Below are positions 24,980 to 30,893 of a stretch of 64,000 nucleotides of DNA, piece after piece. The notes under the pieces are model-generated. The model searched no databases and had not been told where the DNA came from. It saw nothing but the letters and a program-made list of their open reading frames with translations. A program made the translations under genes and the position numbers. Source of the stretch: an uncultured Campylobacter sp. (lineage in GTDB: Bacteria; Campylobacterota; Campylobacteria; Campylobacterales; Campylobacteraceae); the NCBI GenBank assembly GCA_963528285.1, contig CAURVK010000002.1, forward strand, positions 2,326 to 66,325. The letters run 5' to 3'. Position 1 is the stretch's first letter; the number at the start of each line of letters is the position of its first letter.

Positions 24980-25555
24980 ATGGCAAATAAAAAACGGATA
25001 GAAATAATAGAAAAACATATTATAGAAGCAAAAAGCTATTTAAATAAAGAGCCTAAAGAAATTTATGTTTTTTTTAATCATTTAAATGCAACATATAAGA
25101 ATATAGAAGAAATCTATATTCCTGTCCGTCCAGCTGCAATCAGCCTTTACTATGATACTCCTATAGACTATAGTAAATACAAGGAATATCTTGAAAGGTT
25201 AATAAATAGATTAAATTTATATGTAGCCAAACTACAAGATGAGGATGAAAAAACAATGAGTTCAAATCAATCAAATTCAGTTACAATAAATAATAACAAT
25301 ACAAATACAACTAACGCCAATATAACTCAAAATATAAGTATCAAAAATACGATGGAAAAAATAAATCAAATTCCAGATGAAATTCTTGCTAAAAATTTAA
25401 AGTATGAATTAAAGGGAATGCTTAGCGAGCTTGAGGATTGCAAAGATAATCAAGAGAAAAAATCGAAGCTAATGGAAGTCGTTAAATGGCTTGGAGATAA
25501 AACTGCTGATGCTTTTATCGCTTGTTTGCCGTATTTTGCCGGACTTGGTTTATAA
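24980..25555 (+). CDS. AT-rich orphan hypothetical protein inserted between purB and nrdA
   Basis: GAGG RBS; abrupt AT-rich codon usage; Asn/Thr-rich linker. Confidence 0.75.
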   Translation: MANKKRIEIIEKHIIEAKSYLNKEPKEIYVFFNHLNATYKNIEEIYIPVRPAAISLYYDTPIDYSKYKEYLERLINRLNLYVAKLQDEDEKTMSSNQSNSVTINNNNTNTTNANITQNISIKNTMEKINQIPDEILAKNLKYELKGMLSELEDCKDNQEKKSKLMEVVKWLGDKTADAFIACLPYFAGLGL

Positions 25556-25576: not shown

Positions 25577-27952
25577 TTGAAAGTACTAAAACGAAACGGA
25601 CGCACGGAAGAGCTTGATGTAAGCAAGATCAAAAAATACACGAGCGAGGCGGTCGCTGGGCTAGCAAACGTGAGCCTAAGCGAGCTTGAGGTGGACGCGA
25701 AAATTCAATTTCGCGATATGATAACGACCGAGGAGATACAGCAAACCCTCATCAAAACGGCCGTCGAAAAGATCGACATCGACCGCCCAAACTGGACATT
25801 TGTTGCGGCGAGGCTATTTTTATACGACCTTTATCACAAGGTCACGGGCTTTAGCGGCTATAACCACCTACGCGACTACCTACAAAAGGGCGAAAAAGCG
25901 GGCCGTATCATCCCTGGGCTAAAAGAAAAATACGACCTGGACGACCTAAACGACTACATCAGGCCAGAGCGCGACTTGCAGTTTGCATATCTTGGCATCA
26001 AGACGCTATACGACCGCTACCTCATCAAAGACCGCAGCGGCGCGCCGATAGAGCTACCTCAGCAGATGTTTATGGCTATAGCGATGTTCCTCGCGCAAAA
26101 CGAACTAGACTGTCAAGGCTGGGCGAAGAAATTTTACGACCTCATATCTAAATTTGAAGTCATGCTAGCCACCCCTACGCTCTCAAACGCCCGCACAACG
26201 CGCCATCAGCTAAGCAGTTGCTACGTAGGAAGCACGCCGGATAATATCGAGGGAATTTTCGATAGTTACAAAGAGATGGCCTTACTTAGCAAATTTGGCG
26301 GCGGTATCGGCTGGGACTGGTGCAAAGTGCGCGCTATGGGCGGCAGCATCGACGGACATAAAAACGCGGCCGGCGGTATCATACCGTTTCTAAAAGTCAC
26401 GAACGACATCGCCGTCGCCGTCGATCAGCTAGGCACGAGAAAGGGCGCGATAGCCGTCTACGTCGAGCCGTGGCACATGGACGTGAGCGACTTCTTGGAT
26501 CTACGCAAAAACTCGGGCGAAGAACGCCGCAGAGCGCACGAGCTATTCCCGGCGCTTTGGATAAACGACCTTTTCATGAAACGCGTCAAAGAAAACGCGC
26601 GCTGGAGCCTCTTTGACCCCGCAGAGGTCGCCGATCTGTGCGATCTATACGGCGATGAGTTCGAGGCGCGCTACCTAGCATATGAAAACGACGAAAAGAT
26701 CCAAAAAAACGTCGTCATGGCAAAAGAGCTGTGGAAGAAAATTTTAACTAGCTATTTTGAATCGGGCATGCCGTTTTTGTGCTTTAAAGATAACGCAAAC
26801 AAAGCCAATCCAAACGACCACGACGGCATCATCAGAAGCTCAAATTTGTGCACCGAAATTTTCCAAAATACGCAACCAAACTACTACAAGATCAAGATCA
26901 CGTTTGATAACGGCTCCGAGCGGTTATTTGACGAGGAAGAAGACGTCACCGTCGATAGCGGCATAACCAAAAAAGCCAAAAAACTAAGCGCGCTAGATAG
27001 TATCGGCGGCGAGCAAATTTTCATCGTCGAAAAAGAAAGCGTCGAGGGCAAAACCGCCGTGTGCAACCTCGCGAGCATAAATTTAAGCAAAATCAACAAA
27101 AAAGAGGACATCGAGCGCGTCGTGCCGATCGCCGTACGCATGCTAGATAACGTCATCGATCTAAATTTTTACCCGCACAAAAAGGTCAAACACACCAACC
27201 TAGCCTCCCGTTCGATCGGCCTTGGCGTCATGGGCGAGGCGCAGATGTTAGCCGAGCGCGGCGTGAAATGGGGCAGCTACGAGCACCTAGCGCTGATCGA
27301 TAGCGTGATGGAAAACATAAGCTACAACGCCATCTATGCCAGCTCAAATTTGGCGGTAGAAAAGGGCGTTTATCCGCTCTTTGAAGGCTCAAAGTGGAGC
27401 AGAGGAGTGATGCCTATCGACACGGCAAATGCAAACGCCAAAGCGCTTCTAAACGACAGAGGAGGGCTATTTGACGAGAACGCCTGCGACTGGAGCAAAC
27501 TACGCGAAAAGGTCAAAAAAGACGGCATGCGAAACGGCTACCTGATGGCGATCGCACCGACGTCGAGCATCAGCATACTCGTGGGCACCACGCAGACGAT
27601 CGAGCCCGTGTATAAGCGCAAATGGTTCGAGCACAACCTAAGCGGCATGATACCAAACGTCGTGCCAAATCTCAGCCCTGAGACGTGGCAGTTCTACACA
27701 CCTGCCTACGAGCTAGATCAGCGCGTACTCGTGCGTGCCGGCGCCATCCGCCAAAAGTGGATCGACCAGGGCCAGAGCCTAAATATTTTCATGAGCCTAG
27801 ACAAAGCTAGCGGCGGATATCTGAGCGAAATTTACACGCTCGCGTGGGAGCTGGGACTAAAATCAACCTACTATCTACGCTCCGAAAGCCCTGATAGCGA
27901 AAAGCTAAACAACGTCGCCGATCGCTCGATCGAGTGCGAGGGGTGTCAGTAA
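25577..27952 (+). CDS. nrdA: Class Ia ribonucleotide reductase alpha subunit
   Basis: N-terminal ATP cone; ATPTL, LSSC, SNLCTE, IAPTSSIS, KSTYYLR, C-terminal CEGC. Confidence 0.97.
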   Translation: MKVLKRNGRTEELDVSKIKKYTSEAVAGLANVSLSELEVDAKIQFRDMITTEEIQQTLIKTAVEKIDIDRPNWTFVAARLFLYDLYHKVTGFSGYNHLRDYLQKGEKAGRIIPGLKEKYDLDDLNDYIRPERDLQFAYLGIKTLYDRYLIKDRSGAPIELPQQMFMAIAMFLAQNELDCQGWAKKFYDLISKFEVMLATPTLSNARTTRHQLSSCYVGSTPDNIEGIFDSYKEMALLSKFGGGIGWDWCKVRAMGGSIDGHKNAAGGIIPFLKVTNDIAVAVDQLGTRKGAIAVYVEPWHMDVSDFLDLRKNSGEERRRAHELFPALWINDLFMKRVKENARWSLFDPAEVADLCDLYGDEFEARYLAYENDEKIQKNVVMAKELWKKILTSYFESGMPFLCFKDNANKANPNDHDGIIRSSNLCTEIFQNTQPNYYKIKITFDNGSERLFDEEEDVTVDSGITKKAKKLSALDSIGGEQIFIVEKESVEGKTAVCNLASINLSKINKKEDIERVVPIAVRMLDNVIDLNFYPHKKVKHTNLASRSIGLGVMGEAQMLAERGVKWGSYEHLALIDSVMENISYNAIYASSNLAVEKGVYPLFEGSKWSRGVMPIDTANANAKALLNDRGGLFDENACDWSKLREKVKKDGMRNGYLMAIAPTSSISILVGTTQTIEPVYKRKWFEHNLSGMIPNVVPNLSPETWQFYTPAYELDQRVLVRAGAIRQKWIDQGQSLNIFMSLDKASGGYLSEIYTLAWELGLKSTYYLRSESPDSEKLNNVADRSIECEGCQ

Positions 27953-29315
27953 TGGAAAGTACTGGTGAAAATATAACTAGGGAGCAGCTGTTTCAAAAAA
28001 TAGCAGATGCTTCTTTATTCGGAAATTTAAATTTATTTATTGGTGCAGGATTTTCAATGTCTGTTTTTGAAAATTCTATAACAGAAAGGCCGCTGTCATG
28101 GATAGAATTATTGGATGAGGTATGTGAAAAGAAAAAAATTATATTAGATGACAAAGATAAGAAATATAGTTCATGTCCAGAAATAGCTTCAAAAATAAGT
28201 CAAAAAATTTTAGAAAACAATAGTAATAAATTAAAAACTTTAGAAGAAGCGAGTAATGAATTAAAAGCACAAATAAGTGTTTTAACAGCTTGGTATCCGA
28301 ATCAAGAACAAAGAGACGATTATTCTCAAATTTTAAAAAATTTGGAACCAAATTATATAATTACGACAAATTATGATTTAATACTAGAAAATTTATTACC
28401 CGAAAACTCAATTTCGCTAGGCCCAAATGATATATTAACGTCGCCAAAATTTGAAATTCCTATATATCACCTACATGGAATAAGAACGGATCCTAGTTCA
28501 ATCATTATAACAAAAGAGGATTATACAAAATTATTTAGACCAAATGAATATAGATTACAAAAGCTTTCTTTGCTCTTTAAAGAGTCTACCACATTAATTA
28601 TCGGGTATAGTCTCGGGGATACGAATGTTTTAACAGCATTAGACTGGTCAGAAAACATATACAAAGACAATAGTAGAAAATATTATCCAAATGGAATAAT
28701 ACAGTTATTGTACAAAAGAGACAATCCAAATCCTGAGCCTATAATTCAAGAAAATGGAATTATTACATTAGAAATTGACTCCATTCTTGACATAATGAAA
28801 GAGTTGAGTGATTTTATAGAAAGAAATAAAAAAAATACAGCAAAGAAAAACTTGAAATAAATAACTTTAGAAGCAAATTAATTAATGCTGATGATAATCT
28901 TATAAAATCTTTTATAGATGACAAAAATATAAGGACAGATTATATTAACAAAATTCAAGAAAATAGCAGATTTATAATAGAAGCATTTCTACAATTCTTA
29001 ACAAAAGTATTTGATGAATGCTGGGACAGGGCAAAAGAAAGAAATAATTTTGAAGCGTATAACGAATTTCTTTTGATTATACTAGATATATTGATTAAAA
29101 TTCCGTTTAGTAAAATGTCTCCAGCCTTATTTGAAAGCATGGCTTACAATCTGGGTACAGTTTCCAGTTATATTGGATCTAGTCTAGGACAAAGCTATGC
29201 CGCCAATAATACTTGGAATAAGAATAAAAGCAATATACAAAGTACTACAAAAAAAGAATTGCAGTTGTATTATAAGCAACGCAATCAATATAATATGTTA
29301 AAATTACTAAAATAA
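27952..29315 (+). pseudogene. SIR2-like (SIR2_2) NADase-domain gene, frameshifted at A8 tract 28828-28835
   Basis: FIGAGFS, ITTNYD, YHLHG, IIGYSLGD motifs; frame stops at 28860, but one extra A gives an open frame to TAA 29315 (454 aa); AT-rich; TAATG coupling to nrdA. Confidence 0.8.
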
Positions 29316-29356: not shown

Positions 29357-29881
29357 TTACATACAACCGCAACCGCAGCCTCCGCTTGATTTTATAGCGT
29401 CAAATACCGCGTCGTAGTTTGGCTCCTCCGTGATCTCAGCAACGATTTGCTTGTGGATGATGACGCCATCTTTGATAACGAAAACGGCTCTGGCTAAAAG
29501 CCCCGCAAGCGGCCCTTCGCCGATGATTATGCCGTATTTTTCGCCAAACTCTCTAGCTCTAAAGTCGCTACCGACTTTTAAATTTTTGATGCCCTCCGTG
29601 GAGCAAAATCTACCCATCGCAAACGGTAGATCCATCGAAATCACGCTTAGCTTGATCGCCTGTTTTGCTGCCATTTTTTCGTTAAATTTACGCGTCTCAG
29701 TCGCGCAAACGCCCGTATCTAGCGACGGAACGGCGACTAGGATCTCGATGCCGTTGTTGCCGCCGACCTTAAACTCGCCTAGATCCTGCCCGACTAGTGC
29801 GACCTCTGGCGCATACGAGCCTACGAATACCTCTTCGCCTTTTAGCGCGACGTCCGCGCCGTGAAATTTGACTTTTGCCAT
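29357..29881 (-). CDS. tpx: Thiol peroxidase
   Basis: PSLDTGVC, SMDLPFAMGRFC, LLARAVFV, EPNYD; ATG 29881 with AAGG RBS. Confidence 0.93.
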   Translation of the reverse strand: MAKVKFHGADVALKGEEVFVGSYAPEVALVGQDLGEFKVGGNNGIEILVAVPSLDTGVCATETRKFNEKMAAKQAIKLSVISMDLPFAMGRFCSTEGIKNLKVGSDFRAREFGEKYGIIIGEGPLAGLLARAVFVIKDGVIIHKQIVAEITEEPNYDAVFDAIKSSGGCGCGCM

Positions 29882-30029
29882 GTTTTTCCTTTGTTTTAAA
29901 TTTAATCGTAACGCGAATATTACCATACTTTTAACAATGGCTGAAAAACAAAAGCATACAGCGGAATTTAAGACGGTAGTTATCTACAAAGTGCTATACT
30001 ATTTGACATCAATTATCAAGGAGTGACAA

Positions 30030-30188
30030 ATGAGCGACAAAGAAATCCTAGCTTCGCTCGAAGCAAAGCGCACGAAATGCGTCGTCTACACCCGCGTAAT
30101 GGGCTACCACCGCCCTGTAGAGAGCTTTAACCTCGGCAAAAAAGGCGAGCACAAAGAGCGCGTCAAATTTTGCGAACGCAAAGCCTAA
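30030..30188 (+). CDS. 52-aa stand-alone NrdD C-terminal glycyl-radical peptide, not in ORF track
   Basis: MSDKEILASLEAKRTKCVVYTRVMGYHRPVESFNLGKKGEHKERVKFCERKA; RVMGY glycyl loop and FN.GK..E..ER tail; AAGGAG RBS; TGCTATACT extended -10 upstream. Confidence 0.88.
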   Translation: MSDKEILASLEAKRTKCVVYTRVMGYHRPVESFNLGKKGEHKERVKFCERKA

Positions 30189-30206
30189 CCTAACCGCGAG
30201 TAAAAC

Positions 30207-30893
30207 GTGAAAAACGACGATTTTCCGCTTTACTCGCTCACCCCCTTTACGACCCTTGACTACCCCGATAAAACGGCCTGCATAGCGTGGTTTGCGGGCT
30301 GCAATATGCGCTGCGCCTACTGCTACAACGTCCCTATCGTCACGGGCACGGGACAGATCAGCTGCGCCGAGTTTATCAAATTTTTAGACAAGCGCAAAGG
30401 CAAGCTTAGCGGTGTGGTTTTTAGCGGCGGCGAATGCACGCTTAGCCCAGCGTTTTTACCGCTAGCTAGCGAGGTAAAGTCTCGCGGATTTTCGCTCAAA
30501 GTTGATACTAACGGCTCAAATTTGAGCGTGCTTGGGCAGGCTATCTCGATAAATTTGATCGACTATATCGCGCTTGATTTTAAAGCGCCGAAAGAGAAAT
30601 TTCTCAAGGTTGCGGGCTCAAATTTGTATAAAAATTTCTTGCAAACGCTTGAGTTTTTGCTGCAAACCGACCTTAAATTTGAAGTTAGAACGACGGTACA
30701 CGTGGACTTGCTGGATGAGGGCGATATCTCGGCGATGAGCGAGATATTGTACGATCACGGATATAGAGGCGTTTATTACCTGCAAAATTTCCTAGACACG
30801 GGCGAAAATTTTGGAAATTTAGCGCAAGCAAAGGCTAAATTTGATCCAAATTTGATCCGTTCAAATTTAGAAATAGGGCTTAGGAATTTTTAG
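30207..30893 (+). CDS. nrdG: Anaerobic ribonucleotide reductase activase (radical SAM)
   Basis: TTLDYP, GCNMRCAYC, FSGGE, VDTNG, EVRTT. Confidence 0.9.
   Translation: MKNDDFPLYSLTPFTTLDYPDKTACIAWFAGCNMRCAYCYNVPIVTGTGQISCAEFIKFLDKRKGKLSGVVFSGGECTLSPAFLPLASEVKSRGFSLKVDTNGSNLSVLGQAISINLIDYIALDFKAPKEKFLKVAGSNLYKNFLQTLEFLLQTDLKFEVRTTVHVDLLDEGDISAMSEILYDHGYRGVYYLQNFLDTGENFGNLAQAKAKFDPNLIRSNLEIGLRNF

Follow-up and report, generated by a model that had tools for sequence, protein, structure and literature searches.

Here we report that an uncultured oral Campylobacter species encodes a class III ribonucleotide reductase (RNR) NrdD in two separate genes, one for a catalytic body of 701 amino acids that stops before the glycyl radical loop, and one for a peptide of 52 amino acids that carries this loop and lies beside nrdG, the gene of the radical-SAM activase. 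Both genes are intact and under selection, together they make up one complete NrdD of the PRK08270 type, and the genome holds no other source of the loop. It is very probable from the sequences that body and peptide form a class III RNR in which the peptide would be an obligatory subunit acting in trans, with the radical at Gly25. Oxygen destroys glycyl radical enzymes at a single glycine, and a detachable replacement is known for pyruvate formate-lyase only, according to the accessible text of a review (PMC13450708).

Peptide and NrdD body

The peptide gene was found in a window of 64,000 nt, which is the whole stretch of DNA that was analysed (Table 1). A Pfam profile search matched the peptide to PF13597 solely at positions 531-562 of 562 (30.3 bits, cut-off 26.2), and its loop motif occurs a single time in all six frames of the whole 2.05-Mb genome. 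An initial annotation of the window had described the open reading frame (ORF) with an extended -10 element and an AAGGAG site, nrdG 18 nt later, nrdA about 2 kb away, a divergent tpx and no NrdD barrel. All of this agrees with the coordinates: the gap between the peptide stop and the nrdG start measures 18 nt, nrdA ends 2077 nt upstream of the peptide ORF, and the only NrdD body of the genome lies outside the window. The annotation had also suspected that similar short ORFs might be annotated in relatives; RefSeq indeed lists the short peptide ORF for close relatives and annotates both genes. The nearest sequence clusters of the peptide bear Campylobacter rectus/showae names, and the PDB contained no sequence match to it.

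AAGGAG-like sites lie 5' of nearly all homologous peptide genes. The extended -10 element is kept in 9 of the 12 usable upstream regions of relatives with separated genes (a 13th region was masked), and CTATACT, which resembles it, is retained upstream of the NrdD body gene. A consensus promoter scanner was silent on the element because it requires a -35 box. Two low-share sequencing runs of uncertain kind yielded scattered contigs only, which speak neither for nor against expression of the locus. Directly 3' of the element lies an inverted repeat, TTGACATCAA (window 30003-30012), which is kept in seven of the nine close relatives having that promoter and is possibly a regulator site.

Table 1. 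Positions of the features discussed (plain numbers refer to the window; other positions carry genome, contig or locus labels).
Feature	Position	Strand	Basis or remark
Glycyl-radical-loop peptide ORF, 52 aa, ATG to TAA	30030..30188	+	PF13597 match and dN/dS
Gly25 codon within RVMGY, predicted radical site	30102..30104	+	sequence
Putative promoter of the peptide-nrdG operon, extended -10 TGCTATACT	29992..30000	+	conserved in relatives
Shine-Dalgarno AAGGAG, 6 nt 5' of the peptide ATG	30018..30023	+	
nrdG, radical-SAM activase, NrdG2 type, GTG start at 30207	30207..30893	+	TIGR02495 181 bits, cut-off 131; CxxxCxxC in sequence
tpx, thiol peroxidase, divergent	29357..29881	-	context; occupies body-gene position of relatives
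nrdA, class Ia large subunit	25577..27952	+	context; ancestral neighbour of nrdD-peptide-nrdG operon
NrdD body, 701 aa, MCCR type, outside the window	G000:C2:167821-169926		PF13597 2-529
CRISPR array, 28 repeats, 27 spacers, next to a cas1-like ORF, outside the window	G000:C2:104385-106165		label by sequence resemblance
7-nt insert in phage-like peptide gene	L395:2501-2522		
7-nt insert in phage-like peptide gene	L396:2501-2522		
7-nt insert in phage-like peptide gene	L399:2501-2522		
7-nt insert in phage-like peptide gene	L403:323-344		
7-nt insert in phage-like peptide gene, L492	G205:C20:17867-17890		

The body gene lies on the same contig as the peptide gene, 135,308 nt away and with no N in between. 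Its product stops a few residues past the Zn ribbon and before the RxxGY loop. The two pieces tile PF13597 (body 2-529, peptide 531-562) as well as the PRK08270 model (body 3-656, peptide 649-682), and the body scores 1090 bits on NF006126 (PRK08270; cut-off 548). It carries the ATP cone, the NxN flap, HxHD, the MCCR finger loop, E564, E569 and the Zn ligands, all of which, the ATP cone excepted, are invariant or nearly so in 29 bodies. The ribbon ligands C670, H673, C683 and C686 are invariant in these 29, the second ligand position being His and not Cys. By alignment, with a four-residue tag offset allowed, E569 is likely the counterpart of Glu581 of the P. copri enzyme, which binds the tyrosine following the radical glycine (PMC11226230, accessible text). 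An AlphaFold model of the body, predicted with intermediate confidence (mean pLDDT 68.6, below 50 in the finger-loop region), has a terminal helix at 684-699; in fold comparisons it matched class III RNRs best.

No glycine loop was present 3' of the body gene in any frame over the next 5 kb, and a sequence check of the body revealed no other glycine loop. Neither a class II RNR nor a match to PF01228, the PFL-type glycyl radical domain, was detected in the genome, in which body and peptide are the sole oxygen-independent RNR detected. The system thus has the RxxGY loop, but on a separate peptide, and a cognate activase NrdG that scores above its cut-off; since the loop is not at the C-terminus of the catalytic chain, which ends after the Zn ribbon, we regard it as a variant and not as a canonical one-chain NrdD. 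The initial annotation had proposed a split enzyme with a loop-less barrel encoded elsewhere and had advised a search of the genome for the large NrdD. The search returned one body, 135 kb away and without the loop, and no full-length NrdD, as the proposal had foreseen.

Two slots near nrdA are variable. Window positions 27934-28860, together with the nrdA-tpx interval of relatives (L041, L043), form a variable defence hotspot, occupied in this genome by a SIR2-like gene (PDC-S25 being its best PADLOC match), in G004 by a TIR/ThsB-like gene and in G011 by Hachiman hamA-hamB. Between purB and nrdA, an ORF of 191 aa (window 24980-25555) without a Pfam or PADLOC match occupies a slot that contains different genes or none in relatives.

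Distribution and history

The split is the rule in Campylobacterota and is found in Bacteroidota and Proteobacteria as well. An NRDD match was present in 135 of 251 Campylobacterota genomes, which comprise 15 one-chain forms of another type (two of them checked, both MGCR), two one-chain MCCR forms, one fragment and, by subtraction, 117 loop-less bodies. Within the genus, 123 of 125 genomes have the peptide, 30 of them in at least two copies; the two without a match are a genome that lacks any NrdD and G354 (92% complete, 190 contigs), which has a body. The peptide is absent from all 58 genomes of a sister genus having a one-chain MGCR NrdD or none. A query with the endolysin also had no match in these 58 genomes, so the absence of the peptide there is uninformative about the phages of that genus.

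Among the best 80 of at least 601 genome loci, which include Flavobacterium, Sphingobacterium, Algoriphagus and Akkermansia, none is one-chain: body, peptide and nrdG occur together in 69, peptide and nrdG in eight and body and peptide in one, and two are lysis cassettes. Cupriavidus necator pHG1 and Paracoccus have the split layout, and Actinomyces oris has a one-chain form. In the accessible text of PMC2864759, nrdDG of C. metallidurans is given as Rmet_5137 and Rmet_5139, with the intervening gene omitted, and NrdDG of strain H16 (C. necator pHG1) is cited as essential for complete denitrification. Short homologues of the peptide number 5162. One supposed one-chain form (G039) was dropped when its locus proved to be split, and G179 contains a second, isolated C-terminal fragment of a body (L136, G179:C7:35149-35301), which is 96-100% like the body reported here and lies away from G179's own operon.

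The usual gene order in relatives is nrdA, body, peptide and nrdG, close to queF and gyrB. The body gene of one clade was relocated to the dctP-sodB locus, the peptide gene and nrdG stayed, and tpx took the upstream slot. The initial annotation was right about the location of tpx, but its value as evidence for a link to oxygen is weak, since tpx is found there only in the clade whose body gene moved away. The halves are also apart in six other genomes, on one and the same contig in G004, G006, G011 (a closed chromosome), G143 and G105 and on different contigs in G035.

Selection was estimated from pooled pairwise counts, in which kin are not independent. The dN/dS of the 34-codon peptide core was 0.012 in nine hosts with the separated layout and 0.060 in 38 distinct hosts with the adjacent layout, and that of the body was 0.064 in seven genomes with the separated layout. 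Gly25 is invariant in 47/47 distinct host and 65/65 distinct phage DNA cores, and all four Gly codons are used. Missing purifying selection on this glycine, which the initial annotation had named as evidence against its own reading, was not what we found.

Three one-chain MCCR forms, in G220 (L126), G127 (L127) and G338 (L289; without an ATP cone), are nested at separate places among split forms. Their monophyly was rejected (p-AU 4.9e-6) with a tree that used 26 of 48 aligned rows and is not firmly rooted. Because split forms stand on both sides of the deepest branches, the simplest reading is that three lineages re-joined the pieces independently. All three lack the terminal helix of the body and the leader of the peptide; in 86 of 86 split bodies an acidic helix start follows the last cysteine. 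The presence of both ends in split forms and their loss in re-joined ones suggest that the Zn ribbon and C-terminal helix of the body would dock with the N-terminal leader of the peptide. These natural one-chain MCCR NrdDs are useful as controls for biochemistry.

Phage copies and CRISPR

Extra copies of the peptide gene are located between holin and endolysin in five prophage loci of four genomes. On viral contigs, the matches listed comprise 77 distinct sites whose loop motif is intact; 66 lie within 1.5 kb of a lysis gene, two near the gene for the terminase small subunit and nine elsewhere, and no body or nrdG was present in the fetched flanks of the 77. These sites come from three scans of viral contigs, the first of which covered the best 80 of 267, and they are a biased sample, since a lysis cassette supplied the first query and the lysins used as references were taken from these same loci. 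A lysis-linked member is present in 12 of the 17 sequence clusters of viral copies. The neighbouring lysins are of eight kinds (GH108, GH24, SLT, Amidase_2, Amidase_3, CHAP, phrog_465 and a putative DUF5675), and 44 of 45 measured copies overlap a holin gene. The dN/dS of the phage peptides is 0.044-0.074. In L295, L296, L324 and L395 the peptide gene lies directly 5' of the gene for the terminase small subunit, which is likewise a position in a late operon. A tree of the 102-nt peptide sequences intermixes phage and host copies and is too short to trust; the INPHARED phage collection contained no sequence match to the peptide.

The peptide gene of the phages is accessory. The 41 loci that were fetched by the endolysin consist of 22 with a peptide ORF (one frameshifted), eight with a remnant, one with a disrupted gene, five without a trace, one that is cut off and four from distant phages without the peptide; a second set fetched in this way has the peptide in 9 of 11 loci. 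Lysis cassettes that retain just the first codons of the gene are found in L146, L152, L155, L156, L158, L160, L162 and L163, and in the three that were read at the DNA level (L146, L162 and L163) a short GC-rich repeat follows the remnant. In L175 the gene is disrupted by a different repeat. The copies of the phages probably work on the body of the host during late infection, and the simplest role for them would be an extra supply of the radical carrier.

The CRISPR array of the genome provides a further connection to phages. Its spacer 18 differs from the peptide gene on viral contig L054 at two of 37 nt (35/37 identical) and from the host gene at 14; spacers 3 and 4 are identical to each other. 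A tblastn match at C2:105543-105584 was rejected as a peptide gene, being a CRISPR spacer.

An identical insert of 7 nt that begins with a TAG stop is located between the codons for Met24 and Gly25 in five phage-like lineages (L395; L396/L402; L399/L404; L403; L492 in G205). It folds into a hairpin of 5 bp with a four-base loop holding the stop, and a gene for an HNH/NUMOD4 endonuclease lies just 5' in three of the five. No Rfam match was obtained around the insert. Other matches to the insert pattern (four, and all but two of a further 80 that were fetched) were dismissed as chance. The frame past the insert has a pN/pS of 0.14, which may merely reflect the past of these genes. Translational bypassing in gene 60 of phage T4 is linked to a homing endonuclease. 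Its elements are a take-off codon, a UAG and a small hairpin whose loop has four bases (PMC5462505, accessible text). By analogy, the insert is a candidate for a short translational bypass tied to a homing endonuclease; a 7-nt hop would restore the native loop, and plain inactivation is equally possible.

Function of the split

In the mechanism that we propose, the peptide would bind the body as an obligatory subunit, NrdG would install the glycyl radical on Gly25, the loop would enter the barrel and pass the radical to the finger-loop cysteine, and a peptide cleaved by oxygen would be swapped for a fresh one. The radical chemistry of these steps is established for class III RNRs. Because the genome has no full-length partner, the peptide would be an obligatory subunit and not a spare of the GrcA type. 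Several observations count against this explanation: G354 has a body and no peptide match, the three re-joinings show that the split is dispensable, the body model is of middling quality, and the phage copies are often lost.

As to purpose, the split may make oxygen damage cheap to repair; if the loop is exchangeable, 52 residues and not 750 would be lost on exposure to air. The lone phage copies, being under selection, speak for such an exchange of the peptide, and the three re-joinings indicate that cells can do without it. The inference of the initial annotation that the split exists for cheap replacement is weakened by the three re-joined lineages and by a sister genus with a one-chain enzyme or none. 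The annotation had added that the design suits a microaerophile; the split is not special to microaerophilic Campylobacter and occurs in Cupriavidus, Paracoccus, Flavobacterium and others.

It is possible, although rather unlikely, that the peptide carries the radical in trans with no repair benefit and remains attached for as long as the enzyme lasts. This would fit the three independent re-joinings, a microaerobic sister genus that manages with a one-chain NrdD or none, and the fully buried radical glycine of the P. copri NrdD (accessible text of PMC11226230). The split is, however, kept across several phyla, with all 80 of the best loci among at least 601 being split or peptide-only, and the lone phage copies are under selection, which would be puzzling if the peptide could not be supplied or exchanged on its own. 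Such a neutral fission shares its core with the trans-subunit mechanism, from which it differs in purpose alone.

We consider it improbable that the peptide has another job, as a regulator or decoy of NrdG or as an oxygen sensor, with the body receiving its radical from elsewhere and the phage copies inhibiting the host enzyme or timing lysis. The peptide gene did remain with nrdG when the body gene moved, and overlap with holin genes beside so many kinds of lysin is an odd site for a DNA-precursor gene. However, the body has no glycine loop of its own, and the phage cores keep Gly25 and all loop residues in 65 of 65 cases, whereas a dominant-negative decoy could lose the glycine.

That frameshifting, readthrough, RNA splicing or protein trans-splicing unites the pieces in the cell is very improbable, even though the ORFs of body and peptide touch or overlap in most relatives and natural one-chain forms are known. 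With 135 kb between the halves, a single transcript, frameshifting or readthrough cannot join them, and the separation in the six other genomes is comparable. Across 86 distinct operons with adjacent genes, the loop is spread over all three frames (22/38/26) at distances of 31-915 nt past the body stop; the peptide has its own ribosome-binding site; and the body tail past the last CxxC (7-39 residues) and the peptide leader (about 13) are too short for intein halves. As its halves are unable to share a transcript, this genome is a clean test case. A broken gene with neither half functional in a decaying system is scarcely credible, because, although the phage copies do decay, the host genes have a dN/dS of 0.012-0.064, the peptide is present in nearly the whole genus and across phyla, and the system is the only oxygen-independent RNR detected in the genome.

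Beyond the obligatory trans subunit, a wider picture can be drawn tentatively. There may be a widespread subclass of class III RNRs whose loop is a consumable, exchangeable peptide cofactor; phages might repeatedly have taken this peptide into their late lysis operons for use on the enzyme of the host, hosts might target the gene by CRISPR, and some copies might carry a 7-nt stop hairpin that needs a ribosomal hop.

A natural two-chain class III RNR, if true, would open three questions to direct tests: by what route NrdG gains access to a loop that the active enzyme buries, whether the free peptide can be loaded with a radical, and by what means an oxygen-sensitive RNR is kept working in microaerophiles. 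Past knockouts or purifications of 'NrdD' in such organisms would have missed an essential part, thousands of 'nrdD fragments' of 50-70 aa may be real genes, and phages with the peptide alone would possess either an auxiliary metabolic gene of unusually small size or a new effector of late infection.

Comparison with known systems

In the accessible text of the literature searched (including PMC4493059, PMC2795772, PMC12288474, PMC4390871 and PMC4009431) we found no description of a two-gene NrdD, although older work on nrdDG of pHG1 (Siedow 1999) and on NrdD of N. bacilliformis (Wei 2014) could mention one. New here are the distance of 135 kb between two halves that are both under selection, the test for re-joining, the broad extent of the link to lysis, the CRISPR spacer and the insert.

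Phage nrdD genes that are split by an intron or intein have more than one coding piece (PMC3653736, accessible text). They are spliced back to one chain, whereas the genes reported here have no intervening element or intein-sized extension. The split class II RNR of Pseudomonas aeruginosa, NrdJa/NrdJb, resembles the present system in that one RNR is made from two genes. Both of its parts are needed, and the accessible text of PMC4520616 terms it a unique split RNR of a free-living organism; it differs in being B12-dependent and without a glycyl radical.

GrcA (YfiD) is a small free glycine-loop protein that is activated by the activase of its partner, completes the PFL barrel in trans and binds PFL before activation (PMC8683613, accessible text). 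A review of June 2026, which does not cover class III RNRs in depth, states that among glycyl radical enzymes spare parts have been identified for the formate lyases alone (PMC13450708, accessible text). The peptide is proposed to be a similar small free carrier of a glycine loop that completes a barrel in trans. GrcA, however, rescues a damaged full-length PFL, whereas there is no full-length partner here but one loop-less body; moreover, the peptide matches NRDD, and PF01228 is missing from the genome.

The one-chain class III NrdD with NrdG (MCCR, NF006126/PRK08270) has the barrel, the finger loop, the Zn ribbon, the RxxGY loop and the radical-SAM activase in common with the system reported here. 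Solved one-chain relatives are those of T. maritima (4COI/4U3E), P. copri (8P23), S. thermophilus (9D3X) and phage T4 (1H78). In class III RNRs the loop is described as the C-terminus of a single chain (PMC9669993 and PMC11226230, accessible text), whereas in this Campylobacter two genes 135 kb apart encode the glycyl radical domain, the break falling between Zn ribbon and glycine loop.
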